Positions 15,055 to 58,982 are shown, counted from the first letter of the stretch. The stretch: DNA of 64,000 bases from an uncultured bacterium (GCA_963726455.1 CAVSCK010000004.1:544001-608000); one strand, 5' to 3'. Notes: generated by a model from the sequence alone, not told the origin. Program-made: numbers and translations.

Positions 15055-18000
15055 GTGAAATTGAAAAGATTGATTCTGTCAGCAATGCTGGCAATGTCCC
15101 TGTCCTCGGCCACATGGGCGCAGGACAAAAGCTGGCCTGACCTGCAATCTCTGGAGCAGTTGTCTCCGGCGACTGGAACGGTGAGCCAGTTGACGGTGAT
15201 TGCGCAACCCGATACAGCGGGCGCAACGTCGGTCTATTCGGTCAACTTCGTAGTGAACGGCGACACGCTGCAGCCCGCTGCGAATGTGTTGGTCTTCTTT
15301 CCGGCCGGGTTTGGACTGAATCAGATTGACTCGGCCACGTTCATCGACGATGACCTGAACACAGAAAACTATTCAATAGATAGCGTCGTGGTTTCCGGCC
15401 AGCAGGTGAGAGCCAAGCTGTCGGCTTACGGTATTGCGCCGGCGATGGGAAGCAGAATCACGATCAAGTTTTACGGCATCACTAACAATACGCTGGCAGG
15501 AAACTATCAGGTCTCGCTTGCCATTCTGGACAAAGAGGGGGATTTGATTGCGGCGCCGACCTGGTCGTCGACCTTCACGATTCGCGCCGCTGACTTGTAT
15601 TTATTTGACTTGTTTCCACACGGTATTCAACAGGTGCACGCCGGCACGACACTACTTTATTATGTCGTGACCCAGGACAAATTCGGGAACGCGGTGACCG
15701 CGCAGCCGATTGTCTGGAGTGTGTTAGGAGTGCCGACGCAGACCGGAACCATCGTCGACGGGAGTTTCCAGGCGAAGTTTACCGGAGCGTCGAAGATCAT
15801 TGCGACATACCAAACTTTCGCGGACACCAGCAGTCTGGTTTACGTTCTGCCGGGAGTGTTTGCGCATTTCGAATTCAGCGGCGGTCCGGATTCAATCATA
15901 GCCGGACAGCACTGGGCCAACGGAACTCAGGACGTTACTGCAATTGCCCGCGATCTGTTTGAAAATGTGAATTACGACTATGCCGGGCAGGTCTATTTCG
16001 AATCGACTGACCCGCAGGCACTGCTGCCGTATACCGTGGCGTCGAAGTATCAATTCATTCCGGCGGATCAGGGACGGCATGTGTTTCCGGGTTCGGGATT
16101 TGCGCTCTATACCGCCGGACGGCAGGATCTCCGATTGGTCAAAGCTGACACGGTGATGGGAACGATCCGCGCGATCACAGTGTTGCCGGCGGCTCCGGCG
16201 ACTTACAATTTCTCGGCGCCGGACACAGTAGTGGCAGGGCATTCATTTACGGTGTCAGTCAGCGGAGCGGCAGACACCTGGGGTAACGCCGTATCGGGCC
16301 AGGCGGACATTAATCTGGCTACGGGCAACGGCGCCGCGCCATCGGGAGCATTGCCGTCATTGCCATCGTTCTTTGTGGGAAACGGCTCTGGTTCGGGCTC
16401 GGTCATGCTGGTCAAGGCAGGGAGCGCGTCGATTCAGTTACATCTCGGCGGAGTGACATCGACGAAAGCGGTGTATGCACGACCGGATACGTTGGCGCGA
16501 TTCGATTTTGCGCTTGATGGAACACAGACGACCGGTCGTCCGTTCATCGGAACGGCTCAACTGACCGCCTACGATCAATTTGACAACAAAGTCGACTGGT
16601 TCAACGCCGCACAGGATACCGTAACTATTCATTGCAGCGGTTCGGGGTCTGTTATCAACGGGCGCATCGTCACGGCGGCAGCGTTCGTCAAGGGCGTTTG
16701 CGATCTCAAGACTATCGGTACCGGCTATTCGGGCACCGACTTCTTTGCGATATTCTATGCAACGTCGCAGTCGGGCAAGCAGAGCAATTCGCAGGGCGTG
16801 GAATTCTCATTTCTCAAGATTACCGGCGGCAATCTCACGGAACCCACGAGGTATGTGGGAGACACCTTCAATTTTCGGCTGACGATCTCTGATTTTGGCA
16901 GCCAGCCGGGTATGATCGATTCGCTGCGGTTGTATGTGGGTGGAACGAGAACCACGTACTCGACATTGGACAGGAATCTTCCTGACACGATACCGGCATT
17001 ATCAAATCATGTGTTCACTTTCACCGGAGTAGTGCCCAATCGTCCCAATGAAGCTCTGGCAATTGCTGCGAAGTTTTTCGGGCATGCCGCCGGAGCGAGC
17101 GTAACGGATTCAGTTGGAAATCTGGCAACGTTAACAGTGTTGCCACTGACCGGGATCGGAGTGACGTCGTCGACGTTGGCGCCGCTGCAAGTGACACGTG
17201 ACCGGGAATATGCATTCAGCGTTAGCGTGTTCAATAATAGCGGGGATGACCTGCATCTGACGACAGTAACGAAACTGATTTTGCCGGAAGCTGCCACGTA
17301 TCTGTTGGCCAGCCCAATCGTCGTCGCCGCAAACGGTGGCACGGCGCAGGTGGATTTCGTGAAAGCAGTGGTACCTGACAGTTCGCCGAGTTTAATCTCG
17401 GAAATCAGCGTGGAACTGGTCGGAACTCTCGGGAGTGTGACATACGATCAGGTATTCCCAATTGCGGCCATAGTCGTTACGCAATCCGCTCCGTCGCTTA
17501 CATACAACGGGGGGACACTGACGCCGACGACGCTATTCAGAGGCCGGAATGTCGCGATTGCCCTGGGTGTGATCAATAGCGGGCAGGCGACGCTGGCTGT
17601 CAATGTCGCGACGGCGGAACTGTCGCTGTTGGCGGGAAGCCGCGTGGTATCGACGCTCGTGGATACGAATCAACTCAGTCTTGCAAGCGGCGGCACTAAT
17701 CTAAGATTCAGGCCGGTATTTGTTCCGGCAGATTTTCCGACCACGGTTGACTCGATCACGGTTGATATTGCCGGAACTGCCAACGGCTACGATGAGGTCT
17801 TTCACATTAAGATACAGGGGAACACGGTCACGATACCGGGTGGCGCCGCAGTGCAACTCATGGGGACGGAAATTATCGCTCATAATGCGCCGTACGTCGA
17901 TGTCGACCAAGCGTTCCTGTTCCATGCCACTGTTCGCAATCAGGGTGACGAACCGCTGCAACATGTGTCGATCAACCTGACCAGCGACGGATCCTCGGGA

Positions 18001-19317
18001 TTCGCGGGAACGATCAACATTGAACTACTGCCAGTCGAGGCCGAGTCGACCGTCACATTTGCAGTGACGGCTTCACAGACGCCGCAATCCTCGGAGTTGT
18101 TCAGCGCGCAGATCGTTTCGGCTACCGGCTCCAACTCGGGATTGGCGGGGCAAGTGCTGCCGGGTCTCAATGCAACGCAGGCAGTGGTGATTCAGTCGCC
18201 GGCGCTGTTGCGTCTGGTGTCAACCATTGCCTCGCCACCTGATGCGCAGATTGGCACAGTCGGTCCATCGACGGCGTTCGCCTTTGGCGCAGTGGTGTTG
18301 AACAACGGTCAGGCAGGTGCAGGCAGCGGTGAGGTGACGCTGCGGCAGTTGAAAGGTTCGTTCACATTGCCGGCGCAGTTGACTCAAACATTCGCGATTG
18401 ACCAAAACGTCACCTGGAATCTTACATCACCGGCGACGCCGGATACGGGAATATTCGAGATTGCGATAACCAGCATTCCGCAGGATAACAACACCGGCGC
18501 TGGGGCATTGGTAGCCCGGAGTGCAGACACAATAACGGTTGCCGTTGCGGAGCAGCAGGTGGTCATCGGTGTTGATTATTCGCCGGCAGCGTCAACATTG
18601 TATCTGACCGGCGCGACGGTCAACATTCTGAGCTTCGCATTTGATGTGGTCGGGGCGTCACGAAATCCATATTTGAAATACATCGAATTTGCATTGCGTG
18701 ACCGCAACGACCAGGAAATCAGTCCTGCGTCCGTGTTGTCGAGCGCATACCTTGACTACAACGGGCAGTACAACCTCACGGCGCAACCGGTCGGAAATCA
18801 TTTGCGGTTCACTATGCAGCCAACGTTCGGACTGCCGGAAACTGCAATCCTGCAGATTATTGTCCGGGTGGATCCGTCGGTGTTCGATGCTGCGATCTAT
18901 CTCGATTCAAATTCGTTTGCTGCGGAATATGCCACGGCCGGAACCCCGCTACCGGTACCGGTCATACCGAGGTTTGCGTCGAAGTTGGTGATCCACCAGC
19001 CGTTTACGCTGGTGCAATCATCGTTGGAGCAGTCGTTCTTCTCATATCCGAATCCGTTCTCGCCGTTGACGGGTAAAGCGACGTTCGTCTACAGTCCGTC
19101 GGCGGACAAGCCGGCGACACTGAAGATCTACACATTGACCGGCGAAGAGGTCTGGAGTCAGTCTATCCCAGCTCCCGTATCTCTGAATGATCCGGTGACT
19201 GTCGAATGGGATGGCCGGAACAAAGACAATATCGTTGTGCTGAACGGCGTCTATATCGCGGTGTTAACTGTCGAAAGTGCGGTTGAACTTCGAACGAAAG
19301 TTGCAGTGGTGAAGTGA
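15055..19317 (+). CDS. large secreted beta-sandwich repeat protein with FlgD-Ig/T9SS-like C-terminal domain
   Basis: Signal peptide; C-terminus 'YPNPFSP...LKIYTLTGEEV...WDGRN...NGVYI...KVAVVK'; TTGACA promoter near 14978. Confidence 0.85.
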   Translation: MKLKRLILSAMLAMSLSSATWAQDKSWPDLQSLEQLSPATGTVSQLTVIAQPDTAGATSVYSVNFVVNGDTLQPAANVLVFFPAGFGLNQIDSATFIDDDLNTENYSIDSVVVSGQQVRAKLSAYGIAPAMGSRITIKFYGITNNTLAGNYQVSLAILDKEGDLIAAPTWSSTFTIRAADLYLFDLFPHGIQQVHAGTTLLYYVVTQDKFGNAVTAQPIVWSVLGVPTQTGTIVDGSFQAKFTGASKIIATYQTFADTSSLVYVLPGVFAHFEFSGGPDSIIAGQHWANGTQDVTAIARDLFENVNYDYAGQVYFESTDPQALLPYTVASKYQFIPADQGRHVFPGSGFALYTAGRQDLRLVKADTVMGTIRAITVLPAAPATYNFSAPDTVVAGHSFTVSVSGAADTWGNAVSGQADINLATGNGAAPSGALPSLPSFFVGNGSGSGSVMLVKAGSASIQLHLGGVTSTKAVYARPDTLARFDFALDGTQTTGRPFIGTAQLTAYDQFDNKVDWFNAAQDTVTIHCSGSGSVINGRIVTAAAFVKGVCDLKTIGTGYSGTDFFAIFYATSQSGKQSNSQGVEFSFLKITGGNLTEPTRYVGDTFNFRLTISDFGSQPGMIDSLRLYVGGTRTTYSTLDRNLPDTIPALSNHVFTFTGVVPNRPNEALAIAAKFFGHAAGASVTDSVGNLATLTVLPLTGIGVTSSTLAPLQVTRDREYAFSVSVFNNSGDDLHLTTVTKLILPEAATYLLASPIVVAANGGTAQVDFVKAVVPDSSPSLISEISVELVGTLGSVTYDQVFPIAAIVVTQSAPSLTYNGGTLTPTTLFRGRNVAIALGVINSGQATLAVNVATAELSLLAGSRVVSTLVDTNQLSLASGGTNLRFRPVFVPADFPTTVDSITVDIAGTANGYDEVFHIKIQGNTVTIPGGAAVQLMGTEIIAHNAPYVDVDQAFLFHATVRNQGDEPLQHVSINLTSDGSSGFAGTINIELLPVEAESTVTFAVTASQTPQSSELFSAQIVSATGSNSGLAGQVLPGLNATQAVVIQSPALLRLVSTIASPPDAQIGTVGPSTAFAFGAVVLNNGQAGAGSGEVTLRQLKGSFTLPAQLTQTFAIDQNVTWNLTSPATPDTGIFEIAITSIPQDNNTGAGALVARSADTITVAVAEQQVVIGVDYSPAASTLYLTGATVNILSFAFDVVGASRNPYLKYIEFALRDRNDQEISPASVLSSAYLDYNGQYNLTAQPVGNHLRFTMQPTFGLPETAILQIIVRVDPSVFDAAIYLDSNSFAAEYATAGTPLPVPVIPRFASKLVIHQPFTLVQSSLEQSFFSYPNPFSPLTGKATFVYSPSADKPATLKIYTLTGEEVWSQSIPAPVSLNDPVTVEWDGRNKDNIVVLNGVYIAVLTVESAVELRTKVAVVK

Positions 19318-21152
19318 TGAGGCGGCTTGTCGGAACGATACTGCTGATCGCGGCGCTTGCAAGTGCCACTGCTTTTGCGGGCAAAGGTGAAGGACTGCTA
19401 CCGCTGTTCTCTCGCGGCGCCGGCGGACGGGCACTCGGAATGGGAGGAGCAAACGTCGCGCTGGCGAATGATGCCTCCGGAATATTCTGGAATCCGGCCA
19501 CTCTGACAATGTTGCCCGACAGGACAGTGTCGTTGATGTACCTGCCGCTGCCCGAAGGCACCAGTTACAGTTTTGCGGCACTGGGAATACCGACCGTCGA
19601 CTATGGCAGTTTCGCTCTGGGAGCGTTTCTGCTCTCAACCGGAAGCATTCAGAGACGCGATGATCAGGGGAGACTGACCGGCGAATTCAGTTCGAGTCAA
19701 CAGATGTTCATGCTTGGTTATGGAAAGACTCTGGGACGCCATCTCGCGATCGGCGGCACGATCAAGTTGTTCGGTGAAAGTTTCGATAACGCGTCGTCGT
19801 TCGGCGCCGGTGGTGACCTTGGTATCAAGTTCATTGTGTCTGACCACCTGGCGCTCGGGTTCAACGCACAAAATCTCATCGCTCCGAGCATCAGGTTGGA
19901 GCGCGACAAAGAGACTCTGCCGCGCAACTTCAAGGGTGGACTTGGTGTGGCGATTCCGTTCTCCGACGGGCGGAATCAGTTGGCAATCGAAGTCGATGTC
20001 GACAAGGCCGACAAGGTTGATCCGGCGATTCATGCCGGCGCGGAGTTGGGATTTAGGCACACCTATTTCTTGCGCGGTGGGTACGATGTCGATCAAATAA
20101 ATTTCGGCGCCGGGGTGCATCTCGGTTTCGCGACGTTTGGTTACACGTTCCGCACGCAAAGTTTCTTCTCGCCGCAGCATCAGATCACGCTCGACCTGGC
20201 ATTCGGCGGTTCGATCGCAAAGACGCTCGCCAAGCGTCAGGAGGAAAAGCGCAAGGCGGAAGAGGAATTTGCTAAACGGCAACGCGAACAGGAACTGACG
20301 GTATCAGTAACGCAGGCGCGCAAATTCTATGACAGCGGCACGCTGGATTCGGCGCGGACGTACTATCAGAAAGTTGCAGCGCTTACCGACGGCGGCAATG
20401 CCGAGGCGACCGAACGACTGGCGGAAATCAGCCGCAAGGATTCGGAGCAATTGACGGCAACCGTGCGCGCGGGCGTGGTGGCAGAAGCGGATTCGCTCAA
20501 GGCGACAGAGTTGTTCGGGGATTTGTCGGATGCGATCAAAGTCAAGGATGTCGAGTCAGCTTCATTGTTATTGGATCGGTTGCGGCCGGCTTTCGGAAGT
20601 GACAAGCGCTTTATACAGGAAGAAGCCAGCTACCGCACACTGGTAAACGACCGCGTGGGCCAGCTTGATTTGGAGGCAGCGCGGCTGACCAGAGACAGTC
20701 GGTTGGCAGATGCGGCGTTGCGGTATGACCAGATCTTGCGTTACGATTCTACTAATACCGTGGCGCGACGCAGCTTGAAGGCAATAACTGACAGAGTCGG
20801 CGCGCTCGGACTGCTGCGCTCGGGAGTGAATGCTTATTACGCCGGTGATACCGCGACTGCCCGGCAGAATCTCGAGCAGTTGTTGGCCGCCAGCCCCAAT
20901 GACTCGGCGGCGATCGGGCTGCTGCAACTCCTGAAGGCGCCATCGCCAAGTTCATCGCTGGCTGAGATTCAGAAGAATGAGGCCGTTTGGAAGGTGTATT
21001 TGGATGGTATTGAGAAGTTCCGGCTGGGGGACTACCAGGGAGCAATCCAGTCGTGGCAGCAAGTTTTGACGGCGTATCCACGCAACAGCGAGACGGAAAA
21101 GAACATCGAGCAAGCTAAATTAAGACTTCAACAAGGCGGCAAGACTAATTGA
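19314..21152 (+). CDS. PorV/PorQ-like beta-barrel protein fused to C-terminal TPR repeats
   Basis: GAGGRALGMGGA..A.ANDASGIFWNPA signature, LRGGY strand, then coiled coil and TPR-like helices. Confidence 0.85.
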   Translation: MMRRLVGTILLIAALASATAFAGKGEGLLPLFSRGAGGRALGMGGANVALANDASGIFWNPATLTMLPDRTVSLMYLPLPEGTSYSFAALGIPTVDYGSFALGAFLLSTGSIQRRDDQGRLTGEFSSSQQMFMLGYGKTLGRHLAIGGTIKLFGESFDNASSFGAGGDLGIKFIVSDHLALGFNAQNLIAPSIRLERDKETLPRNFKGGLGVAIPFSDGRNQLAIEVDVDKADKVDPAIHAGAELGFRHTYFLRGGYDVDQINFGAGVHLGFATFGYTFRTQSFFSPQHQITLDLAFGGSIAKTLAKRQEEKRKAEEEFAKRQREQELTVSVTQARKFYDSGTLDSARTYYQKVAALTDGGNAEATERLAEISRKDSEQLTATVRAGVVAEADSLKATELFGDLSDAIKVKDVESASLLLDRLRPAFGSDKRFIQEEASYRTLVNDRVGQLDLEAARLTRDSRLADAALRYDQILRYDSTNTVARRSLKAITDRVGALGLLRSGVNAYYAGDTATARQNLEQLLAASPNDSAAIGLLQLLKAPSPSSSLAEIQKNEAVWKVYLDGIEKFRLGDYQGAIQSWQQVLTAYPRNSETEKNIEQAKLRLQQGGKTN

Positions 21153-21230: not shown

Positions 21231-24065
21231 ATGAGATTATTCAATCGCCCAATCAGAGAGATATTTGCGGAGTTCCCGGCGGCCGAATCGAGGTTGCCGG
21301 AGATTCGGAATTTCATCGAGTCGGTGCTGTCGGACACGCCGTTCCGGCGCAAGGATGTCACTGCCGTCATGCTGGCGATTGAGGAGGCCTGTACCAACGT
21401 AATCCGGCATGCCTATCTCTATGGGGAAGGTACTCTCAAGCTCAGGATTTCGCTGTATAACGACCGCCTGGCCTTGTCGATCTTCGATACGGGCCGAAGC
21501 TTTGACTTCGAGAAATCGTCGGATCCAGACTTAAACCATTACATCAAGACGGGCCGCAAAGGTGGTCTGGGCGTGTACCTTATACGCAAGATCACTGACG
21601 AAGTAAACTACCACTCCTCCGGTGGCGTGAACGAGCTGCGGATGGTCAAACGCTATCCGAAGACGCGTCTTCCGGAAGCAGTCACACCGGAGGGGATGTC
21701 GATACGGTTCAAGTTCTCGCTGTGGACGTCGCTGGTGATGACGCTGGTTATCGTGGCGGTATATTTCTTCTGGGAGAGCAAGGCGGTTAACTCGCGGGAA
21801 AAACAATTCTATCAAAACATCACGGAATACAGCAATACGATCGCGACGCAGGCGTCGGGTTACTTCATTAATAGCAGTTCCGACGTCGAGTTTGACGAGT
21901 TCGTGAGGAACTTCGCCAAGCAGAACCCCGACCTCCGATACATCTACCTTGTCGATGACAGCAACGATGTCGTGGCATCAACCGGCTCGCCGCTCGAGTT
22001 GCACAATCCCTACCGCGCGCCGGGACCCGTCGACGACAAGTTGATCGACCAGCCGCAACGGATCGTTGGTGAAAGCAGAAAACAAGACATTTACTACATA
22101 GTTCAGAACATCAAGTATCAGAATCGGCCGTTCGGCTCGCTGCATGCCGGATTCAGCGGTGAACGATTGCAGAGCGACATCACCTCCACGCGCCGCAGCA
22201 TTTTCCTGGTGACCGGGCTGGCGTTCCTGTTCGCGATCGCGGCTGTGTACCTGCTGTCGAACTACTTCGTCAAGCCGATTCAGAAACTCGTCGACGCGGT
22301 TAAGCGCTTTGGTCGTGGCGACCTGGAGGGCAAGATCACGCTCACGGGCGCCGGCGAGTTCGACGCCATTGCGCAAGCATTCAATGAAATGACGGTGAAG
22401 TTCAAAGAGGCGCAGGCGAATATCGTCGAGCAGGAGCGCATGCGCAAAGAAATGCAAGTCGCCCAGGACATTCAGCACACGCTGTTGCCGAAGCATTTCC
22501 CGGATATCGAAGGATTTGATATTGCCACGATTTATCGCGCGGCCAAGGATGTCGGCGGTGACTATTACGACTTTGTCTGGATCGACGAAAACACTCTGGG
22601 AATCGTGGTGGCGGACGTTTCGGGTAAGGGCGTGCCCGGATCGCTGGTAATGACCATGATCAGAACCGCCATCCGGTTGGAGTCGCGCGGCAACCGTTCG
22701 CCAGTAGATATTCTTACCAAGGTGAATGAGTTCGTGACCGAGGACGTTCGCAAGGGAATGTTCATCACGATCTTCCTGGTGGTGCTGGACACCCGCAATC
22801 GCAAAATTTCGTTCTCATCGGCGGGTCACAATCCAATGGTGCTTTATCGCAAGGACGAGGACAAGACGTTCTTCCTCAATCCGAAAGGCATACCGCTGGG
22901 AATCACCTTGCCGGAGGGAGTCAGTTTCGAGGAGAATCTGAGCAGCGAGAACGTGCGGCTGAAGAAGGGCGACATGCTGGTGATTTACACCGACGGTATC
23001 ACCGAGGCGATGAATCAGCAAAAGCAGCAGTTTGGCATCAACCGCTATCTCGAATTTATCCGCGATAACAGCGACCTTTCGCCGGAGGAATTTGTCGAGA
23101 AATTCAACGACGAGTTGCAGGGGTTCACGGCGGGGGCGGAACAGAACGATGATATCACGATGGTGGTGATCAAGGAGAAGATCGAAGCCGATCAGTACAT
23201 CTTCGCGCGCCGCAAGAAGCTGCTCGATCTCGTGGATATCGAGCAAAGGTCGGTAGCGGAGGCCTGCCGGTTGATGAATCTGTCGACGTCAACGTACTAT
23301 AGATATAAGAAGCGCTACGAACTGTACGGTGATGAAGGCCTGCTGAACAAGACATTGCGGATTGACGATTCGCCGGCGCAGTTGACTTACAAGCAGCGCA
23401 ACGATATGCTCGAGGTCATCAAGCGGAATCCCGATTACGGCGCCACACGCATCCGCAAGGAGCTGGAAACGCTGGGTCATCAGGGGCCGGAGCTCGATGA
23501 CAAGATAATCTACGGCGAATTAGTGCGTTTGCGCCTGAACACGCGGCGTCAGAGATATGAATTTGCGATGCGTGCGGGAGCGGCGCTTACGCCACAGCAA
23601 CAGGAAGATTTTGTCAACTTATCGAAGTCGGAGCCGATCGCGCCTGTTGCAAATACGGATCGAACTGCGTATCTTGGAAAGATCAAGGATTCGCTCCAGC
23701 GCCAGGAGGATGCCCGGGTCGCGGCATGGCGCGCCAAGTTGCTGGAAATGGGCATGACCGACGAGCGTAGCGACGTCCTGACCGCCATGTTCGAAGAGAT
23801 GGAAGGCCAGGTGTCTGCCGAGCAGCTCAAACTTCTTTTTGAACGAGTTGCCGGCAGAGTGCGTAAAATGGATCATGAGGAAGAAAAGGGGAACGTATTG
23901 TCAACTGCCCGCCTGGAAGAGGTGGACAGTACCAAGTGGCAGGAACGCGCCGACGAAGGAATCAGTCTAGAGGTAATCGAATTTCCCGAGACGAAGTCAG
24001 AGATTAAGTTCGAGGACTACGAGCAGAAGCTGGAGCGGCGTCACCGCAAGAGCCAGGACGAATGA
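21231..24065 (+). CDS. membrane partner-switching protein: RsbW-like kinase + TM/sensor/TM + HAMP + SpoIIE PP2C phosphatase + IS481-like HTH
   Basis: LAIEEACTNVIRHAY, DTGRSFD, GGLGVYLI (HATPase_c_2); two TMs; VKPIQKL..GEF (HAMP); GGDYYD, ADVSGKG, YTDGITE, NDDIT (PP2C); SVAEACRLMNLSTSTYYRYKKRY...G..GL...NPDYGATRI (HTH). Confidence 0.9.
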   Translation: MRLFNRPIREIFAEFPAAESRLPEIRNFIESVLSDTPFRRKDVTAVMLAIEEACTNVIRHAYLYGEGTLKLRISLYNDRLALSIFDTGRSFDFEKSSDPDLNHYIKTGRKGGLGVYLIRKITDEVNYHSSGGVNELRMVKRYPKTRLPEAVTPEGMSIRFKFSLWTSLVMTLVIVAVYFFWESKAVNSREKQFYQNITEYSNTIATQASGYFINSSSDVEFDEFVRNFAKQNPDLRYIYLVDDSNDVVASTGSPLELHNPYRAPGPVDDKLIDQPQRIVGESRKQDIYYIVQNIKYQNRPFGSLHAGFSGERLQSDITSTRRSIFLVTGLAFLFAIAAVYLLSNYFVKPIQKLVDAVKRFGRGDLEGKITLTGAGEFDAIAQAFNEMTVKFKEAQANIVEQERMRKEMQVAQDIQHTLLPKHFPDIEGFDIATIYRAAKDVGGDYYDFVWIDENTLGIVVADVSGKGVPGSLVMTMIRTAIRLESRGNRSPVDILTKVNEFVTEDVRKGMFITIFLVVLDTRNRKISFSSAGHNPMVLYRKDEDKTFFLNPKGIPLGITLPEGVSFEENLSSENVRLKKGDMLVIYTDGITEAMNQQKQQFGINRYLEFIRDNSDLSPEEFVEKFNDELQGFTAGAEQNDDITMVVIKEKIEADQYIFARRKKLLDLVDIEQRSVAEACRLMNLSTSTYYRYKKRYELYGDEGLLNKTLRIDDSPAQLTYKQRNDMLEVIKRNPDYGATRIRKELETLGHQGPELDDKIIYGELVRLRLNTRRQRYEFAMRAGAALTPQQQEDFVNLSKSEPIAPVANTDRTAYLGKIKDSLQRQEDARVAAWRAKLLEMGMTDERSDVLTAMFEEMEGQVSAEQLKLLFERVAGRVRKMDHEEEKGNVLSTARLEEVDSTKWQERADEGISLEVIEFPETKSEIKFEDYEQKLERRHRKSQDE

Positions 24066-24850
24066 AGAAAATAGCCATCATGACCTGCAAAGGTGGAACC
24101 GGCAAAACCACCACTGCCATTAATCTGGGACATTGTCTCGCGATGTCGGGTAAGCGGGTGTTGCTGATGGACTGCGACTCGCAGGGCAACGTCGGCATGG
24201 CGTTCGCCAAGCAGCCGGAGAAGGGTTTGTCGGAATTGTTGACGACAGGTGATGTGGATATTGTCAATCTGCGGCCGAATCTGTATCTCATTGACTCCGG
24301 CGGTATTCGCATTGTCGAAACCGAGCTGTTTCTTGCCAGACAGCCGGAGCGTGAACTGCGTTTGAAGCAGGTTTTGACGAAGTTGCATGGCTGCGATTAC
24401 GTGATTTGCGACTGCCCGCCGGCAATAAATTTGATAAATGTCAATGTTCTGAACTATGTCGACAGCGTGGTGATTCCGGTTTCGATGGATTTTTTTGCTT
24501 GTGAAGGAGCGAAAAAGACCTTAAAGTTACTGGACGGGGTGTACGAACGGATCGGCCACAAGGTCGAGCTGATGGGAATACTGGCCACTTTCTACGATGT
24601 GAGAACGCGCGTGTCCAAGACGATTTATAATCAGTTGCTAACTGAATTTGGCGAAAAGTTGTTCACGACGCGTATCAGAATCAATACGCAGCTCAAGGAA
24701 GCACAGATGTTGTACAAGACGATCTTTGAGCATGCTCCATACTCGAACGGTGCCCTCGACTATTTCCTGTTTGCCAAGGAGATCGCCGGTTCAAAAGTCG
24801 CGGTAGAATCGGAAATCGAAGCTCCGCAAGGAGAAGCATGGACGACATAA
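24062..24850 (+). CDS. ParA/Soj family ATPase (orphan)
   Basis: KGGTGKTT deviant Walker A, DCDSQGN, DCPP; overlaps both neighbouring genes. Confidence 0.95.
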   Translation: MKKIAIMTCKGGTGKTTTAINLGHCLAMSGKRVLLMDCDSQGNVGMAFAKQPEKGLSELLTTGDVDIVNLRPNLYLIDSGGIRIVETELFLARQPERELRLKQVLTKLHGCDYVICDCPPAINLINVNVLNYVDSVVIPVSMDFFACEGAKKTLKLLDGVYERIGHKVELMGILATFYDVRTRVSKTIYNQLLTEFGEKLFTTRIRINTQLKEAQMLYKTIFEHAPYSNGALDYFLFAKEIAGSKVAVESEIEAPQGEAWTT

Positions 24851-25548
24851 GAATCTCGCTCGATACTACCGGCCGCACTTCCGATGTGACGATGGTGCGG
24901 GTTGACGGCGTCATTGATACCATGACCGCCAGTGAACTTGAGCGGGTGATGAACACACTCCTGGAGCAACGAAAGTATAAGATCATAGTGGATCTCGCCG
25001 GCGTGGACTATATTTCGTCTGCGGGTTGGGGCATTTTTATCAGCAATATCCGTGAAATCAAATCGCATGAGGGGGATATCAAACTCGCGCGAATGACGCC
25101 CAGTGTCTACGAGATATTTGAATTGCTGGAATTTGACTCGATCCTGAAGGCCTATGATAATATCGAAAAGGCCAGAACAGATTTCCGGCCCCCGGGATCA
25201 GCGCCGGAGCCAATAGCACCCAAGGCAGCGGTCGCAGTGGCTGAGGAACCGGTAGAAGTCGAGTCCCAGCAGGAAGTGACTACTGAGGAATATCATATCC
25301 AGCCGAGCACAGCGCCAACTGCCGAACCGCGTGCTTCGCTGGAAAGCGCCAAACCAACCAACTTCGAGGATGAATTGCTGGCATTAGTGCGGACTGATCC
25401 ATTCTATTCGATAGGGGAGATGGCAAAGCTGATGTGCAATTCCGCCAACGGTGCACAGCACGTCGGTTGGTGGAAGGTTTGGGGCACGCTCCGCCGGCAC
25501 TCCCTGTTATCGAAGAAGAGCCGCTTTCGCTACAGTCGTCGCGGGTGA
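24838..25548 (+). CDS. STAS anti-sigma antagonist with acidic linker and C-terminal HTH-like domain
   Basis: IVDLAGVDYISSAGWG (phosphoacceptor Ser motif); C-terminal 'RTDPFYSIGEMAKLM...VWGTLRRHSL..KKSRF'. Confidence 0.9.
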   Translation: MDDIRISLDTTGRTSDVTMVRVDGVIDTMTASELERVMNTLLEQRKYKIIVDLAGVDYISSAGWGIFISNIREIKSHEGDIKLARMTPSVYEIFELLEFDSILKAYDNIEKARTDFRPPGSAPEPIAPKAAVAVAEEPVEVESQQEVTTEEYHIQPSTAPTAEPRASLESAKPTNFEDELLALVRTDPFYSIGEMAKLMCNSANGAQHVGWWKVWGTLRRHSLLSKKSRFRYSRRG

Positions 25549-25793
25549 GCAGGCCTCACTCTTTCACAATTCACAAAATATCATCGGGACATCGCAGGGA
25601 ACAAACAGGAATGTTTATCCTACCGACGCGTTGCAGTAGGTCAGTGAGCACTTTGTCTTGATGGCAAGGCGCGGGGTTTCGTGGACGTTCGTCCTCTGAG
25701 CAGGCGTGACACAGGAATCGAAAACGGGCTCCTGACCTACTTTCTAGTGTTCCGCGAGTCTGGGCATGGCGACCGGCATGGTCGCCTTTCTGC

Positions 25794-25822
25794 TTGCGGA
25801 AAGCGTTGTGGCGGTCTATAAT
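25794..25822 (+). promoter_or_regulatory. sigma70-type promoter for the diguanylate cyclase/EPS operon
   Basis: TTGCGG-N17-TATAAT. Confidence 0.6.
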
Positions 25823-25837
25823 TATGTGAAAGACTGT

Positions 25838-27613
25838 ATGTCATTGCCGCTCATCGTCTATGTAGCACTGCTGGCGCTGCTCCTGTTGGCCTGCGCGATC
25901 TTCCCCGGATTCGCCAGAATGGGAATCATTGTCTCATTCGTGGTCGCGGCTGTCGGCGGCGCGATCGTTCTTTACCTGCAAAACCGAAAATCAGAGGGAA
26001 GACTGCGGCAAGTCGTGAAGTTGTATCTGCAACGGCTCGAACAGGCGCATGGCGATTTTGTCTCCCGGCGTCAGTTGGAGCGGCAGATTGCCGATCTGGC
26101 GTCCTTCGTTCATTCGGATATGCAGGTGTCTACCGTGGCGTTGTGCAGCCGGAAGAAACTGGGATTTGCAGTGGTGGAGTCGCACGGAATCCAGCCGGAG
26201 AATTTGCGGCAACTGCGAATCGGGCATCGAGACGAATTAGTTAAGGCGTTGGAAGCGCGTCGGGCGGTCGTATCCATTCGGAAGGTTTATGCCTCCGGAA
26301 ATGCGGGAAAGCAATTCGACGGCCTGCCGTTTGTGGAAGCACTGCCGGTCATCACCGGCGGCAAATGCTCGCACTTCATTCTGCTGTCACACTCGCCGGT
26401 GTTCCCGATGCGGCTGATTCGTCCATTTCTGCTGTCGCTGTCCGATCAGATCGCCAATTCACGGGTGGTTGAGGAGTTGTTAAACAAACACAATCAACAG
26501 GTTGGCAAGCTGCGTAAAGAGATGGATTCGTTGATTCGGGAACGGGAGCAAAGGTCGGCGCCACCGATTATGGATGTCAAGAGCATGATCAACGCCCAGG
26601 ATCGACTGTTGCGAATCAGGAGCCGCGAGCAACTGTTCGGCTCGCTTCTGCATCTGGTCGAAGAGCAGTTCAAAGTGGATTTTGCATTTATTTTGATGCG
26701 TCAAGCGAACCAGCCCGGATATGAAATGAAATACAGTCTAAACGTTGGCACCGATCCCGCCGCTAATTTGGCGGTTGCTGATGTTGAGGCATTTATCACT
26801 GAGGCCAGGAGCCGTCCCGGCTGCAAGAAGCTGTCGCAACTTGCCGAGGTTACAAAGGACAATCCTGTTATTGAGGCGCTGCAGAACGCAGGTGTGGTGG
26901 CGCTGGGGATTCTCACGGACGCCGAAGGACGGGAAAGTATGATGGCGGTCGGGCGCGCCAAGAGCCCGTTTAGTGATGAGGAACTGGAAGCGGCCTACGC
27001 CTTCTGCCGGATGTTCAACCTGGTGCTGGAAAATCAGGCGCATTTCGAGCAAATCGAGCAAATGTCGTATACCGACAGCATGACCGGGTTGTACAATTAC
27101 CGGTATTTTTACAAGCGTTTGCAGGAGGAGATTCTGCGCGCCAAACGATTCAGCCGGCATCTGGCGCTGGTGATCTTTGATATTGACGAGTTTAAGGTTT
27201 TTAACGATACTTACGGTCACCAAGCGGGAGACTATCTGCTTGAACAACTGGGCGGTCTATTGGCAAAATCAGTTCGTTCTATCGATGTTGTCTCCCGGTA
27301 CGGCGGAGAGGAATTTTGCGTGATTATGCCCGAAACGTCAGCGGATGACTGCACCTACTTTATGGAACGAATGCGGGCAACGGTGCTGAACCATGAGTTC
27401 AAGGACCGGTTTACGAATGACCAGCACCGGGTAACGGTATCTCTGGGGGGAGCGATTTATCCTAATGACGCACAAAGGATTGACCGATTAATATACTGTG
27501 CGGACATGGCGCTTCTGCAGGCCAAGGCAGGCGGCAGAAACCGGTCCGTGATGTTTGACGAGAAACTTCTTAATTCGAGAAGCGATCTGTATGACAAAAA
27601 AAGTATTGATTAA
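25838..27613 (+). CDS. membrane-anchored GAF-like sensor diguanylate cyclase
   Basis: Two N-terminal TMs, TDSMTGLYN, DIDEFK..ND.YGH..GD, RSID I-site, RYGGEEF. Confidence 0.92.
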   Translation: MSLPLIVYVALLALLLLACAIFPGFARMGIIVSFVVAAVGGAIVLYLQNRKSEGRLRQVVKLYLQRLEQAHGDFVSRRQLERQIADLASFVHSDMQVSTVALCSRKKLGFAVVESHGIQPENLRQLRIGHRDELVKALEARRAVVSIRKVYASGNAGKQFDGLPFVEALPVITGGKCSHFILLSHSPVFPMRLIRPFLLSLSDQIANSRVVEELLNKHNQQVGKLRKEMDSLIREREQRSAPPIMDVKSMINAQDRLLRIRSREQLFGSLLHLVEEQFKVDFAFILMRQANQPGYEMKYSLNVGTDPAANLAVADVEAFITEARSRPGCKKLSQLAEVTKDNPVIEALQNAGVVALGILTDAEGRESMMAVGRAKSPFSDEELEAAYAFCRMFNLVLENQAHFEQIEQMSYTDSMTGLYNYRYFYKRLQEEILRAKRFSRHLALVIFDIDEFKVFNDTYGHQAGDYLLEQLGGLLAKSVRSIDVVSRYGGEEFCVIMPETSADDCTYFMERMRATVLNHEFKDRFTNDQHRVTVSLGGAIYPNDAQRIDRLIYCADMALLQAKAGGRNRSVMFDEKLLNSRSDLYDKKSID

Positions 27614-28562
27614 TCTTGGCGTGGCGCTTGCCCTCCTGTTGTCGCTGGCGCCGGCGGCGTATGCTGAATACACGATTGGCATCGATGATGTGCTGCAGAT
27701 CGTCTTCTGGCAGGCCGCGGATTTAAATCAGACCGTTACCGTTAACTCGGACGGCAAAATTACGCTGTCGGTTATCGGGGATATTACGGCGGCAGGTTTG
27801 ACACCCACGGCGCTGGGCCGCAAAATTGTCGAACAGGTTTCTCGGTTTAACCGCGATATCAGCCAGGCGACCGTGACGGTTGCGGCTTACAACTCGCAGG
27901 CGGTATACGTCGAAGGTGAAGTGATGGCGCCGGGTAAATACTCGCACGAAGTTATTCCCGATCTCTGGTCAATTATCAAGGAGATGGGTGGAGTGACCGC
28001 GTTCGGGGATTTGCGCAACGTCAAGATCGTTCGCGGCACCGGTCCGGATGTCGGCAAGATTATTGCGGTCGATGTCCAGACGGCGGTCTCCAATCGTAAT
28101 GTCGAGTCGCTTCCGAAAATCATGCCGCATGACGTTATCCAGGTGCCACGCACGATTTCCGGCGTAACGACAACGGGCATGCCGACGCAGGCCGAAACCA
28201 CCACGGGGCGCAACATATACTACGTGGTTGGCGCGGTAGCCAAACCGGGAGTGTACTCGTTGGAATCGGGATTGAGCGTCATCGAGGCGATCGCCATTGC
28301 GGGCGGCACATTGCCGACCGCGAATTTGAAGTCGGTCAAAATAAATTCGAAGATGGGCGAATTTTCCAATGTCTATACGATCAACATGGATAAGCAAATC
28401 AAGACCGGCAGCCCGCAGCGCTATTCACTGCGTCCGGAAGACGCGGTAGTCGTTCCTGAGAAAGGCGGTAATTTCTTTGGCAGTTTTGCGGCTTTCCGGG
28501 ATATTCTGGCGGTTTTCGCGACGGTTGTCTCGACGTACATCTTGATAAGGTACCATCCATGA
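27591..28562 (+). CDS. polysaccharide export protein (Wza/OPX, SLBB domains)
   Basis: YTIGIDDVLQI, VNSDGKITL..IG.I.AAGLT, VEGEV..PG.Y, EAIAIAGG. Confidence 0.9.
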   Translation: MTKKVLINLGVALALLLSLAPAAYAEYTIGIDDVLQIVFWQAADLNQTVTVNSDGKITLSVIGDITAAGLTPTALGRKIVEQVSRFNRDISQATVTVAAYNSQAVYVEGEVMAPGKYSHEVIPDLWSIIKEMGGVTAFGDLRNVKIVRGTGPDVGKIIAVDVQTAVSNRNVESLPKIMPHDVIQVPRTISGVTTTGMPTQAETTTGRNIYYVVGAVAKPGVYSLESGLSVIEAIAIAGGTLPTANLKSVKINSKMGEFSNVYTINMDKQIKTGSPQRYSLRPEDAVVVPEKGGNFFGSFAAFRDILAVFATVVSTYILIRYHP

Positions 28563-30073
28563 GCCAGAAGCAGATTACACTACACGATATCTGGCAGATC
28601 ATCTGGAAGCGCAAGTTCTGGTTGATACTGCCGCTGATAGTCGTGACCGGCGTGGCGTTCGGGGGGAGCTACCTGCTGCCGACAGTGTATTCATCGTCGA
28701 CCAAGATCGTGATTTCCTCGCAGAAGCTGGTTTCGCGCGAACTGCAAAATATGATTCCGACGGACATGGTTGATCTGCCTGATCCACGAACGGCGCAGCG
28801 TTGGCTGGCCTCGACGCGATCCGAGATTTTGTCCTCGGGATACATCAACACACTGATCACTGATCTGAAACTCGATCCCAAGGAAAGCATAATCAAAGCG
28901 GCAGCCCGCATGCAGGATCAATTTCCGCAGTACGCGTTGCAAGACATCGTGCGGAAACTGCAGATCGACGAGTTGCGCGACAACATCGACGTCGGCATGA
29001 TCGGCGACAACCAGATTGTCATAACGTGTTCATCCGACCAACCCAAGCTGGCAGTCGATATGGCCACCAAACTCGCTCAGATTTACAGCGAGAGGAAGAT
29101 CGCCGATGAGGTTGTAACTGCCCGCGGGAGCCAGGCGTTCACGGATCAGCAACTGGCCGTGGCCAAGAAAGAATTCGAAGATGCGGAAAAGGAACTGGCC
29201 GATTTCAAGAACAGTTATATCTCGTCCAATCTAGAGGCAGGAATCAGCTCGCAGACGAACGTCGCGGCCATTCAGTCAGAGGTGGACGCCACCAATTTGG
29301 AAGCCAATGAGGCAGTTGACCGGAAGAATTTCCTGGCCGGCAAAGTGCAACAGGTTGGTATCGACACGGCGATGGTGTTCCGTTCGGTGATCGGTATTCA
29401 GGATTACGTTGATAACGCGCTCAGTTCTGCCAAGGATATCAGTCGCCTGATGATGAAGTATCTGTGGAAGGACGCCAAAATTCAGATGCAGTTGCTCAAG
29501 GTGGCGAGCGCTTTCGACTCGATGCAGACCAGCTCCAATGCCCAGGCACAGAAGCTGTTCAGTGACCGCTCGCAGGCGTTGCAGGCAGATATCGGCGAAC
29601 TGGCGTATCGGCGCTATGAGATCATATATCTGAACGGCAAGAGCCAGATTCTGAAGTCGGCAGTCCAGCAGATTCGGGGAGTCGTGGCGGGCGCGCCGTA
29701 CTACGATCAAATGGTGGAGACGCTGACAAAGAAGGTCGAAGATCGGCGCTCGATTTTGGACAAATGGCAGACTCAGGCGACCGGCATCAATATCCAGCAG
29801 GCAACGACCTCGGCCGAGGCGGAAACCAAGTACCGGATATTAGAGCCGGCGACAATACCGCTGGAACCGTCGTCTCCGAACCGCGTCAAAATCAGTCTGA
29901 TGGGACTGGGACTGGGAATCTTATTGGGTGTTTGCGCCCTGATTTTGGCGGAAGTAGTTGATCATTCTGTGAAGAATATCGAAGATATCGAGGAATTGCT
30001 CGGCCTGGAAGTGCTGGGGACGATTCCGAAGATAGATGATGACACCAAGACCAAGAAAGTCCGGGCAGCCTAA
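28559..30073 (+). CDS. polysaccharide chain-length determinant (Wzz/GumC type)
   Basis: N-terminal TM after IWKRK, coiled coil, 'ILEPATIPLEPSSPNR' plus TM, 'LEVLGTIP'. Confidence 0.9.
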   Translation: MSQKQITLHDIWQIIWKRKFWLILPLIVVTGVAFGGSYLLPTVYSSSTKIVISSQKLVSRELQNMIPTDMVDLPDPRTAQRWLASTRSEILSSGYINTLITDLKLDPKESIIKAAARMQDQFPQYALQDIVRKLQIDELRDNIDVGMIGDNQIVITCSSDQPKLAVDMATKLAQIYSERKIADEVVTARGSQAFTDQQLAVAKKEFEDAEKELADFKNSYISSNLEAGISSQTNVAAIQSEVDATNLEANEAVDRKNFLAGKVQQVGIDTAMVFRSVIGIQDYVDNALSSAKDISRLMMKYLWKDAKIQMQLLKVASAFDSMQTSSNAQAQKLFSDRSQALQADIGELAYRRYEIIYLNGKSQILKSAVQQIRGVVAGAPYYDQMVETLTKKVEDRRSILDKWQTQATGINIQQATTSAEAETKYRILEPATIPLEPSSPNRVKISLMGLGLGILLGVCALILAEVVDHSVKNIEDIEELLGLEVLGTIPKIDDDTKTKKVRAA

Positions 30074-30083
30074 GGGGAAATTG

Positions 30084-31202
30084 ATGGAGAACTTTCGACT
30101 GAATTCGCGCGTGGCGTCCCCTGACAGGGAATATCTGATTCAGACCTTCAATGATTTGACACAGCATAGAATCCGTTCGTCGATCTTCACCAACGGCGTA
30201 TTGCTGGACACAGTCGAGGAAGAATTCGGCGCCAATACTCCCGAGCCGGAGCTGTTGGAACTGGTCAAGACTACCCATCGCGAGCGCAAAGAAGAAGTCG
30301 AACATCTACTGCAGAAATTTCACGACGCTATGCAGTCGGAAGAAATCGACCAGATTAATTGCCTGGGCCTGGCGATGATGTACAAGCGGATGTTTCCGGA
30401 GGCGGAATCGCTCTTCCGGCGCTCGACGACATTGAATGCGGACGGTCATGATTCCTTCAGCCACCTCGGCGCGGTGATGATGGCGCAAGGCAAGCCGCAG
30501 GAGGCAGTGCAGCCGTTCGAACGCTGTGTCCAACTGCAGCCGCAGTTCGCCGACTATCACAATAGTCTTGGCGAAGCATTCCTGGCGATTGGATCGTGCA
30601 AGCGGGCGATGATCGAATTCGACGAGGCAATTAGTCTGAATCTGTATTACGGCGACGCCTATTTCAATCGGGCGCTGACTTATATTTTCAATGCCATTCG
30701 CCGCGAGGATTTCAAGCTTTTTTCCGAGCATGCGGCCAAGACGATGGAAATGCTGGAACGCGCGGTGATTATCGCACCCGAACTACAGGTGCCGACTTTC
30801 ATCGAAGGCAAAGAGCTTTTCGAACAAGGGGATCTCGAAGCGGCGTTTCACAAGCTGCTTTATGTTCGCGAGCAGCGCAAGGAAAGACGCTACCGCGAGT
30901 TTTCCGACGTCTATCTGCGATTCCTGCTGAATGCCGACAAGGTCGATGACCGCGTGTTGGCGCGCCGGATCAAGCAGTTGAAGGACGCCATCAGCAAGAA
31001 CCCGCATTTCCCCGATCTGCACTATGAGCTGGGAGTGGCCTACACCTTACTCGGACGCTACACGCACGCCAAGGCGATTCAGGAATATCAGGAGGCGCTT
31101 AAGATCAACCCGAACTTCGAGCGCGCCAAGAAGAGTCTGAAACTTGCGGAAAACGAGTTTCGGGGTTTCGACGTCCTGATTAAAGTGATTATGAAAGGAT
31201 AA
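30084..31202 (+). CDS. TPR repeat protein
   Basis: Repeated 'P.FADYHNSLG', 'PHFPDLHYELG', 'ALKINPNF' TPR units. Confidence 0.85.
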   Translation: MENFRLNSRVASPDREYLIQTFNDLTQHRIRSSIFTNGVLLDTVEEEFGANTPEPELLELVKTTHRERKEEVEHLLQKFHDAMQSEEIDQINCLGLAMMYKRMFPEAESLFRRSTTLNADGHDSFSHLGAVMMAQGKPQEAVQPFERCVQLQPQFADYHNSLGEAFLAIGSCKRAMIEFDEAISLNLYYGDAYFNRALTYIFNAIRREDFKLFSEHAAKTMEMLERAVIIAPELQVPTFIEGKELFEQGDLEAAFHKLLYVREQRKERRYREFSDVYLRFLLNADKVDDRVLARRIKQLKDAISKNPHFPDLHYELGVAYTLLGRYTHAKAIQEYQEALKINPNFERAKKSLKLAENEFRGFDVLIKVIMKG

Positions 31203-31206
31203 GATA

Positions 31207-31911
31207 GTGGCCAAAGAGACACGGAAACCCATCTTTGATTATTACCATCCGGAGTCGGTGGTGGCCACGGAGTTTCGGCGGCTGTTGCATAATATCACCC
31301 GGCCGACGAACGGTGTCGAACACAAGTCGTTTCTGATAACTTCCGCCATGTTGTCCGAAGGCAAATCGACGGTGGCGGGCTACCTGGCAATCACCGCAGC
31401 AGCATACAAGAAACGCAAGACGATCCTGATCGATTGCGACCTCAGGCGTCCGACGATTCACAAGCTGTTCAATCTTCCGGTGGAAAACGGCGTAACCGAT
31501 CTCATCGACGGAACCATCAAGGTCGAGGACGCATTCAAGAGCACGCCGCTCAAACACCTTTGGGTTGTTACTGCGGGAAGGATGAAGGATAATCCCACCG
31601 AGTTGTTTGAAGGGGAATCGGTCAAACAGGTTATCGAGCAAATCAAGTTTTACTTCGATATGGTTTTCGTTGACTGCGCACCGGTGATACCGGTTTCCGA
31701 TCCGGTAGTTTTGGCGCCGGACCTGGATGGACTGCTGTTGGTGGTCAAAGCAGGCGCCACGCAGAAAGATGTGGTCAGGCGCGCGTGCGACATCATCTCC
31801 AAGTCAGATGCGAACATCCTGGGCGTGGTGCTGAACAACGTCGAAGGCGTGCTGCCATATCACTACAACCACCGTTACTACGGCTATCAGTACTCTGTCA
31901 AAAAGCGATAG
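31207..31911 (+). CDS. CpsD/CapB bacterial tyrosine kinase
   Basis: ITSAMLSEGKST, IDCDLRRP, VDCAP, C-terminal Tyr cluster YHYNHRYYGYQY. Confidence 0.93.
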   Translation: MAKETRKPIFDYYHPESVVATEFRRLLHNITRPTNGVEHKSFLITSAMLSEGKSTVAGYLAITAAAYKKRKTILIDCDLRRPTIHKLFNLPVENGVTDLIDGTIKVEDAFKSTPLKHLWVVTAGRMKDNPTELFEGESVKQVIEQIKFYFDMVFVDCAPVIPVSDPVVLAPDLDGLLLVVKAGATQKDVVRRACDIISKSDANILGVVLNNVEGVLPYHYNHRYYGYQYSVKKR

Positions 31912-32778: not shown

Positions 32779-32782
32779 TTAA

Positions 32783-57685: not shown

Positions 57686-57738
57686 GGTATCCTCCATTTC
57701 GTGGATATTTATATTGGTTCGGTTAACTTGCTACAGGA

Positions 57739-58443: not shown

Positions 58444-58982
58444 GTGCGTTCATCTCCTCGATCAGAGTTACGATTGTCAGTCCGGCAAAAGGCACCGGCC
58501 AATTTCTTTCTCATCTTGTCGCGCGCGCGTGACAGGCGCATCTTTATTGCCCCTTGAGACTGGCCCACCAATTCCGCGAGTTCAGCAATCCGCCATCCCT
58601 CCAGTTCAGCCAGCGTCACCAGAATGCGATCATCGGGCGAGAGAGCGGACAAGGCAATATCCAGTCTTCTTCTCGCAGCATACTGTCGCGCAGGATTTTC
58701 AGAACCGATCCGGGTATCACTTTCTGACGACACCGGTATCAATTTTTTCCACCAAGCGCTCCGAAAGCGGGCCTTGAATGAATGGTTGATGATCTGATAG
58801 AACCAGGGCCGGAAGGAGTCGATCTGTCTGAGCCCGGCGTAACCCCGATAGGCCGCAATCACGGAATCCTGGTACAAGTCATCTCCTTCTTCGCAGTTGC
58901 CCACGAGGCGACTGCAGTAAGCTCTGGCTTTCCGATGTTCGGTTTCGATCAGCTGCCAGAATGTGGTGCTCTGTCGTTCCAC
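58413..58982 (-). CDS. ECF RNA polymerase sigma factor
   Basis: DDLYQD, FRPWFYQI, ALS...R..VTL...EG..IAELA, IKMRLSRAR; GTG start. Confidence 0.92.
   Translation of the reverse strand: MERQSTTFWQLIETEHRKARAYCSRLVGNCEEGDDLYQDSVIAAYRGYAGLRQIDSFRPWFYQIINHSFKARFRSAWWKKLIPVSSESDTRIGSENPARQYAARRRLDIALSALSPDDRILVTLAELEGWRIAELAELVGQSQGAIKMRLSRARDKMRKKLAGAFCRTDNRNSDRGDERTCCAATPESD

Follow-up and report, generated by a model that had tools for sequence, protein, structure and literature searches.

The stretch of DNA analysed here (64,000 nucleotides from an uncultured bacterium, GCA_963726455.1 CAVSCK010000004.1:544001-608000, called the window below) contains a partner-switching gene cluster in which a bifunctional membrane sensor carries in its tail what its sequence identifies as a domesticated transposase-type helix-turn-helix (HTH) domain. 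An orphan ParA gene directly follows this sensor in every Zixibacteria genome where the long form of its tail was found, and the STAS protein encoded next carries an HTH-like tail of its own. The core of the cluster, all of which is on the plus strand, consists of three open reading frames (ORFs): the sensor (944 aa, 21231..24065), with kinase, transmembrane (TM) segment, periplasmic domain, second TM segment, HAMP, PP2C, HTH pair and C-terminal extension; the Soj-like ParA ATPase (262 aa, 24062..24850); and the STAS protein (236 aa, 24838..25548). A first-pass annotation of the window, made from the sequence alone, had described these three ORFs, and translation reproduces their coordinates and overlaps. 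Taking all the evidence together, we see about an even chance that the cluster is a switch of the SypE/SypA or Hsb kind with the cyclase and the envelope loci as its target, in which the sensor tail recruits ParA in a ParB-like manner and the HTH domains contact DNA.

The sensor tail and its linkage to an orphan ParA

The bipartite HTH occupies sensor residues 660-782 (23208..23576). Pfam places HTH_28 at residues 660-707 (1.4e-8) and HTH_32 at 688-747, and the NCBIfam model of IS481 transposases aligns sensor residues 661-774 with its positions 2-112 of 284 (E 2e-12), as the first-pass annotation had suspected from the likeness to the N-terminal region of these enzymes; IS3 models of NCBIfam are matched as well. 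The DDE catalytic core is absent: Pfam found no rve match in the sensor, and the IS481 alignment ends at position 112 of 284. No second copy of the tail was found in the 3.64-Mb genome, and a comparison with the sequences of solved structures gave only a chance match (E 0.94). The net charge of the HTH region is +7 in the window protein, with a median of +7 across homologues, and both this region and the STAS tail are basic within otherwise acidic proteins. Long-tailed sensors are present in 44 of 201 Zixibacteria genomes (a partial tail in 2 more), and the sensor-HTH architecture was also found in other FCB phyla by the region search and among fetched loci. Since the region is single-copy in the genome and conserved, its sequence marks it as a domesticated transposase-type HTH and not a remnant of an insertion sequence (IS). 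Domestication had been proposed in the first-pass annotation, and a one-off remnant absent from orthologues, which would have spoken against it, is not what the 44 genomes show.

The ParA gene (AAA_31/CbiA in Pfam) is coupled translationally at both ends, its ORF overlapping the sensor stop by 4 nt (ATGA) and the STAS ORF by 13 nt. Its best solved relative is Soj of T. thermophilus (1wcv, E 3e-39), in keeping with the Soj-like ParA named earlier, and the deviant Walker A motif KGGTGKTT (K10-T18) is invariant in 18 sequences. A canonical parA, to which the operon ParA is 35% identical, adjoins the only ParB_N gene of the genome on contig 5; Pfam found no ParB among the ORFs of the switch cluster. 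Orthologues of the operon ParA (E<=1e-45) occur in 44 of the 201 Zixibacteria genomes, and these are exactly the 44 with a long-tailed sensor; the gene is directly downstream of the sensor on the same strand in 44/44 (printed coordinates compared by eye), so that its synteny with the sensor, on which the earlier proposal depended, holds. A census across several phyla covered the 99 loci in which the sensor ORF is complete and followed by 400 nt or more of sequence (L117 duplicates the record L039). ParA was the next gene in 49 of the 99, always behind an HTH-bearing sensor (49/49), and behind none of the 18 HTH-less sensors.

Sensors linked to ParA have an additional acidic, helical C-terminal extension found only in them (residues 783-944, 23577..24062 in the window), and they end in a common motif, aromatic-x-x-Tyr-x-x-Lys/Arg-Leu. 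In a loosened form this motif is present in 46 of 49 ParA-linked sensors vs 1 of 50 others, a split that is partly circular because the ParA-linked sensors themselves supplied the pattern, which was then loosened. A complex of two ParA copies, two ATP and sensor residues 880-944 was modelled with custom alignments and an ATP rider, outside the calibration of the tool, and scored 0.64 (runs 0.64, 0.70 and 0.55), with 0.03 for the best control; the mark applied is reached by 116 of 157 solved complexes and by 2 of 215 mismatched pairs. The runs share at least 81% of their contacts, the pLDDT of the partner is at least 65, and the contacts (sensor residues 887-899, 902-914 and 926-938) span both ParA copies. 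The predicted contact region, residues 887-938 (23889-24044), includes the terminal F-x-x-Y-x-x-K-L motif. The model supports binding of ParA to the C-terminal peptide of the sensor.

The other parts of the sensor agree with the order of kinase, TM, periplasmic domain, TM, HAMP and PP2C that had been assigned to this 944-aa polypeptide. They comprise an RsbW-type serine kinase domain (residues 15-140, 21273..21650; HATPase_c_2 PF13581, 1e-25), which matches the RsbW models of NCBIfam at 3e-20, under their equivalog cut-offs; TM1 at 162-181, the periplasmic part at 182-321 and TM2 at 322-344 (21714..22262, from hydrophobic windows); HAMP at 341-388 (22251..22394; PF00672, 5e-11); and a PP2C/SpoIIE phosphatase at 453-648 (22587..23174; PF07228, 4e-50). 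The N and G boxes of the kinase and the Asp motifs of the phosphatase are visible in the translation. Orthologues carry sCache_3_2 in the periplasmic stretch, for which the window protein itself is below threshold. Pfam found no Response_reg domain in the sensor, and TM, periplasmic domain, TM and HAMP occupy that place. Full-length orthologues in related genomes are 45-81% identical, and the source names given for homologues point to Zixibacteria. In two genomes of the same family (G016:C2:306789-309600 and G019:C3:16408-19222) the sensor aligns as two adjoining pieces, query residues 1-260/271 and 257/283-940, which may represent a split or frameshift after the kinase part.

The STAS protein, its tail and a poly-A run in one family

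The STAS domain covers residues 1-117 (24838..25188; PF01740, 1e-17). The segment D57-Y-I-S-S-A-G63 is invariant across 29 STAS sequences, and this conservation makes S60/S61 (nt 25015-25020) the candidate phospho-serine. A disordered acidic linker (residues 118-175, 25189..25362; pLDDT 41-47), which varies in the alignment, leads to a strongly basic, four-helix, HTH_32-like domain at residues 176-236 (25363..25545). For residues 178-236 no Pfam family was matched even at E<=10. BLASTP aligns the same residues with sensor residues 724-782 (E 0.005), and hhalign of a profile of 127 STAS tails against one of 58 sensor HTHs gives a probability of 91.1% (E 1e-6), with STAS residues 178-235 on sensor residues 724-781, the HTH_32 half. 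By sequence, therefore, the STAS tail is probably homologous to the second half of the sensor HTH and a single HTH-like domain; the first-pass annotation had noticed this resemblance, and the profile comparison supports it. AlphaFold2 predicts four helices with a pLDDT of about 90 following the linker, and a mean pLDDT of 85.5 when the tail is modelled alone.

A search of 1.84 billion representatives with the STAS-tail profile found 206 proteins at E<=0.001. Among the 150 relatives listed, 18 were checked with Pfam and proved to be small stand-alone proteins, STAS-plus-tail proteins, and long fusions of HTH_28/HTH_32 with a family-2 glycosyltransferase. Calculated over the whole library, the E values with which the profile matches HTH_32 parts in other proteins range from 1e-9 to 1e-5. 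Seven of the relatives (P0259, P0274, P0238, P0269, P0298, P0319 and P0305) have two tandem HTH_28/HTH_32 pairs fused to the glycosyltransferase, another attachment of this HTH type to polysaccharide machinery without a transposase core, and one profile relative (P0322) is named Patescibacteria. An ESM Atlas search with the tail gave no usable match, and no longer fused form of the STAS protein was found at E<=1e-10, which is weak evidence according to the search tool. An apparent ParA-STAS fusion in locus L040 was rejected, since its translation has a stop between the two genes.

The net charge of the STAS tail is +6 in the window and +5 to +13 (median +8) in 127 homologues. No second copy was found in the 3.64-Mb genome. 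The tail is present in 170 of the 201 Zixibacteria genomes, almost always in one copy, and in most of these the sensor ends right after PP2C, without the HTH. The first-pass annotation had treated the tails of the kinase-phosphatase and the STAS protein as one architecture, and this idea has to be given up. The sensor HTH and the STAS tail are not a coupled pair, because the latter is almost phylum-wide and mostly stands beside HTH-less sensors, and HTH sensors in other phyla have plain STAS domains.

One Zixibacteria family (f7) shows a different arrangement, in which the STAS ORF has 128-133 aa and the tail is in another frame. We fetched 26 loci of this family (L028:10112-10133; L041:7404-7449; L042, L043, L044, L053; L134-L153), of which 24 had both parts. 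The tail is in the -1 frame relative to STAS in 24/24 analysable loci, and the overlap of the frames contains a run of A (A10 in 19 loci, A9 in 4 and A11 in 1), with G as the next nucleotide in 23; the stop of frame 0 follows 2-8 codons past the run. The tail frame of L041, like that of L044, lacks a common start codon (ATG, GTG or TTG) ahead of the domain. Among 29 in-frame STAS genes including that of the window, whose longest A run is 4, 26 have no run longer than 8 and 3 carry A10. The run of L134 was reproduced without insertion or deletion in contigs of three DNA runs of one study, one of which is possibly the source sample of the metagenome-assembled genome (MAG) itself. This pattern is probably programmed slippage, transcriptional or ribosomal, or phase variation, and such a site would yield a short STAS protein and a long tailed one. 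Slippage in dnaX and IS3 is a parallel for a poly-A site of this type.

Output genes, distribution and competing explanations

The gene after STAS encodes a membrane diguanylate cyclase (615 aa, 25766..27613; GGDEF in Pfam, 2.6e-44), the probable output of the module, with GGEEF and an RxxD five residues upstream in its translation; it matches the SiaD model of NCBIfam at 4.6e-45, below the cut-off. Then follow polysaccharide export genes (27555..31911): Wza (27555-28562), a Wzz-like gene (28559-30073), a TPR protein (30036-31202) and a P-loop kinase-like gene (31207-31911). The first-pass annotation passed over all these genes directly behind STAS, although it correctly recorded that the operon has neither parB nor a cognate sigma factor, with which our domain searches agree: no sigma-70 family member was found among the ORFs of the switch cluster, and the sole one in the window is an extracytoplasmic function (ECF) sigma factor about 33 kb off on the minus strand (58413-59063). 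Because the GGDEF cyclase and the Wza/Wzz locus come after STAS, the core appears to be a switch like SypE/SypA or HsbR/HsbA/HsbD, and cyclase plus exopolysaccharide export are its probable, non-sigma output. The gene order was counted in 34 Zixibacteria loci that extend 1.5 kb or more past STAS. The cyclase comes next in 28 of the 34 loci; three of the 28 show apparent overlaps, which result from the choice of start codon, and were included all the same. STAS and cyclase also remain neighbours in L049, L050 and L051, where the sensor gene has another location. In the window, 217 nt separate STAS and cyclase (25549-25765); this distance is about 90-135 nt in four orthologous loci from the same family and falls under 30 nt in two from another. 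The longest-ORF rule may have miscalled the cyclase start, or the window may have an extra untranslated stretch.

The conserved cluster opens upstream with a giant surface protein (1420 aa, 15055..19317), which has a CARDB domain (Pfam) and is likely a type IX secretion cargo, the match to the type IX C-terminal sorting domain TIGR04183 being weak (20.2 bits vs a cut-off of 23); its gene is syntenic in Zixibacteria and other FCB phyla. Next is a PorV/PorQ-family outer-membrane barrel with C-terminal TPR (19314..21152; NF033709, 116 bits with a cut-off of 90; TPR matches in Pfam), whose gene immediately precedes that of the sensor at almost every related locus, those of other phyla included. 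The order cargo, PorV/PorQ-TPR, sensor, (ParA), STAS, GGDEF and Wza holds across Zixibacteria. The exopolysaccharide locus continues at 31918-33898 with a polysaccharide deacetylase having DUF3473 and a DUF362 protein, and is longer downstream for this reason. A minus-strand cluster at 56888-61698, unrelated to the switch, holds four DUF1573/HYDIN-like Ig proteins together with the ECF sigma factor and a 234-aa ORF adjoining it (57739-58443).

In Krumholzibacteriota and Latescibacterota, loci consist of PorV/PorQ-TPR, a 1350-1480-aa fusion, ParA, a TPR protein and two STAS genes. The fusion (L055-L097, e.g. L058:5989-13199) joins kinase, Cache, HAMP, PP2C, HTH and three STAS domains, with no GGDEF nearby, and two fusions of this type end in Trp-x-x-Tyr-Gly-Lys/Arg-Lys-Leu; hmmsearch with the STAS-tail profile gave no match at E<=10 in 15 of these Krumholzibacteria-type proteins. 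In MAG loci of Bacteroidota and Calditrichota, PorV/PorQ-TPR is accompanied by sensor-HTH, the Calditrichota sensor having TPR in addition, and neither ParA nor STAS was matched within 6 kb. FCPU426 has sensor-HTH and then a plain STAS gene. A KSB1 locus has sensor-HTH-TPR and then a 237-aa STAS protein, the tail of which matches the sensor HTH directly (33% identity).

Based on domain content, the sensor would use its Cache-like domain and HAMP to read a signal in the periplasm and would toggle the switch, its N-terminal kinase phosphorylating S60/S61 of STAS and its PP2C domain removing the phosphate. Gene order suggests that STAS, in one of its phospho-states, acts on the membrane cyclase encoded beside it, which would then set c-di-GMP (cyclic di-GMP) for the flanking polysaccharide export and type IX surface-protein genes. 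The cytoplasmic end of the sensor may be a ParB-type adaptor, composed of a basic bipartite HTH, a helical spacer and the aromatic-Tyr-Lys/Arg-Leu peptide, to which the dimer of the co-translated orphan ParA would bind as in the complex model, so that, with the nucleoid as reference, ParA may position the sensor, cluster it or gate it. The STAS tail would be a separate, older domain, basic and HTH-like, through which STAS is anchored to DNA, to some other anionic partner or to a protein, with its dosage in family f7 possibly set by poly-A slippage. Contact of the HTH domains with DNA is inferred from homology, fold and positive charge. Our most specific proposal, which we put forward tentatively and consider somewhat improbable as it stands, is that a ParB-like adaptor has been grafted onto a kinase/phosphatase, that nucleoid and orphan ParA decide where or whether the switch and its c-di-GMP, exopolysaccharide and type IX output operate, and that STAS has its own DNA-binding HTH, dosed by slippage in one family. 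If this is true, the cluster would represent a new link, conserved in several FCB phyla, between envelope signalling and chromosome-based positioning.

Several observations weigh against these proposals. The 44 ParA-bearing genomes belong to six families and may be one clade, so that the cases are not independent. In the 99-locus census, 32 HTH-bearing sensors have no ParA next, and the HTH must therefore have a role without ParA. The C-terminal motif was relaxed after a first count of 29/49, and the complex model may have passed through likeness, because complexes of ParA with partner peptides are already solved. The cyclase is not adjacent to STAS in 6 of the 34 loci (1.5 or 4 kb off in 2, not found in 4), and no GGDEF was matched in any locus fetched from outside Zixibacteria; it is for these reasons not the universal output of the family. 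Fold matches of the STAS tail are weak: Foldseek returned nothing at E<=0.001 (best E>=2.6), and the best Z of VIA-align, 6.1 for the ArgR N-domain, is under the caution line of that tool. Of the HTH folds proposed earlier for both tails, that of the sensor is confirmed by Pfam and NCBIfam, and the STAS tail is probably homologous to it, its weak structural matches being nearly all to HTH or winged-helix domains. Outside coding sequence, alignments of the STAS-GGDEF (7 loci) and PorV-sensor (10 loci) intergenic regions show neither a conserved block nor a repeat or palindrome, a null that neither shows nor excludes an operator.

Among other explanations, the HTH pair could be a transcriptional output, the sensor being a ToxR-like membrane regulator, STAS with its tail a co-regulator at specific operators, and ParA an anti-activator as FleN is for FleQ. 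Transposase-type HTHs bind specific DNA, both regions are basic and the cluster has no sigma factor; moreover, because the HTH sensors of Bacteroidota, Calditrichota and FCPU426 MAGs occur without ParA or GGDEF, the HTH could be the ancestral output. The two intergenic alignments are free of repeats and palindromes, however, most Zixibacteria sensors are HTH-less and yet keep the same cluster, and a specific regulator held at the membrane by way of a 300-aa spacer would have an odd geometry, so that we regard this explanation as unlikely. We would be similarly surprised if the HTH-like domains no longer bound nucleic acid and served as protein-docking or membrane modules (for instance to bring STAS to the cyclase, to the sensor or to anionic lipid), with ParA only a regulatory ATPase. 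Such a role would suit a STAS tail that is retained where the sensor is HTH-less and ParA absent, is always encoded between STAS and the cyclase gene, can occupy a separate frame, and has as its closest non-STAS relatives, among the matches listed, HTH pairs on glycosyltransferases and not on DNA enzymes; its Trp-rich basic helices could bind membranes, too. It fits poorly with the clear sequence homology to DNA-binding HTH families, with the conserved net charge, and with a compact fold whose top fold matches are nearly all HTH or winged-helix DNA-binding domains, transposase HTHs among them. Finally, the sensor tail could be a one-off IS remnant or assembly artefact, and parA an unrelated partition gene there by chance. 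The IS481 and IS3 matches, and transposases in related genomes whose N-termini are about 25-30% identical to the sensor HTH, could be cited for this, but the tail has no rve core and no second genomic copy, is conserved at full length in 44 genomes and in other phyla, and belongs to a sensor whose ORF overlaps parA and adjoins it in 44/44 genomes, with the canonical parAB elsewhere. This last explanation is contradicted by the conservation data, and we assign it practically no weight.

Comparison with known systems and significance

Partner switches are textbook controls of sigma factors, and to our knowledge only a few of them (SypE/SypA, HsbA/HsbD and SiaABCD) drive biofilm formation or c-di-GMP instead. 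With RsbU/RsbV/RsbW and SpoIIE/SpoIIAA/SpoIIAB the present cluster shares all three domains (kinase, phosphatase and STAS) and the serine motif, but it has no cognate sigma factor, and its kinase and phosphatase belong to a single membrane protein. Like ParA/Soj-ParB, it has a deviant Walker A ATPase, and the partner of this ATPase has an HTH region as well as a short peptide at its end that is predicted to lie across the ParA dimer; unlike ParA/ParB, it has no ParB_N and no parS, and the adaptor would be the tail of a membrane kinase/phosphatase with a transposase-type HTH. ParA-like ATPases that place signalling arrays, ParC-ParP and PpfA-TlpT, are further parallels. With IS481 transposases the sensor shares the N-terminal HTH_28 plus HTH_32 (model positions 2-112), and it differs from them in having no DDE core, a single copy and a fixed genomic context.

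In full-text literature searches, the best-ranked matches included no partner switch joined to ParA or to an HTH-bearing STAS protein or sensor, and a review of STAS-only proteins contains neither "helix-turn-helix" nor "DNA-binding". Relative to the literature surveyed, the new elements are the transposase-derived sensor HTH, the obligatorily linked orphan ParA with its predicted docking peptide, and the HTH-like STAS tail. The cluster is conserved in the uncultivated FCB phyla Zixibacteria, Krumholzibacteriota and Latescibacterota, and simpler versions occur in MAGs of Bacteroidota, Calditrichota, KSB1 and FCPU426. It links a partner switch to a PorV/PorQ-like type IX component. The sensor tail appears to be a clean case of transposase-domain domestication, and, if ParA positions the sensor, the cluster would be a compact case of nucleoid-guided placement of an envelope signalling protein.

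The closest known systems are found among biofilm switches. In SypE of Vibrio fischeri, a serine kinase and PP2C flank a REC input domain and control the STAS protein SypA through a conserved serine (PMC10120452). The present cluster likewise has kinase and PP2C on one polypeptide around an input domain, a single STAS protein as the putative substrate, a polysaccharide or biofilm locus and probably a non-sigma output; its input part, however, is TM, periplasmic domain, TM and HAMP in place of REC, and the transposase-type HTH and ParA-linked extension of the sensor, the HTH-like STAS tail and the ParA gene in between have no counterpart in the SypE-SypA described there. In Pseudomonas aeruginosa, HsbA, a protein of the anti-sigma-antagonist type, interacts with the diguanylate cyclase HsbD encoded nearby and controls biofilm formation, and the localisation of HsbD is dynamic and polar (PMC5085249). 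SiaABCD similarly combines a switch protein with a nearby-encoded diguanylate cyclase in biofilm control (PMC8457831), and the window proteins are far below the equivalog cut-offs of the NCBIfam models for SiaA and SiaD. As described in these papers, HsbR-HsbA-HsbD and SiaABCD are without a membrane-integral bifunctional sensor, HTH or ParA. As with HsbA-HsbD and SiaC-SiaD, the cyclase gene is linked to the switch protein here (28 of 34 Zixibacteria loci), the cyclase partner having been shown experimentally in Pseudomonas and being suggested by gene order in the present cluster.

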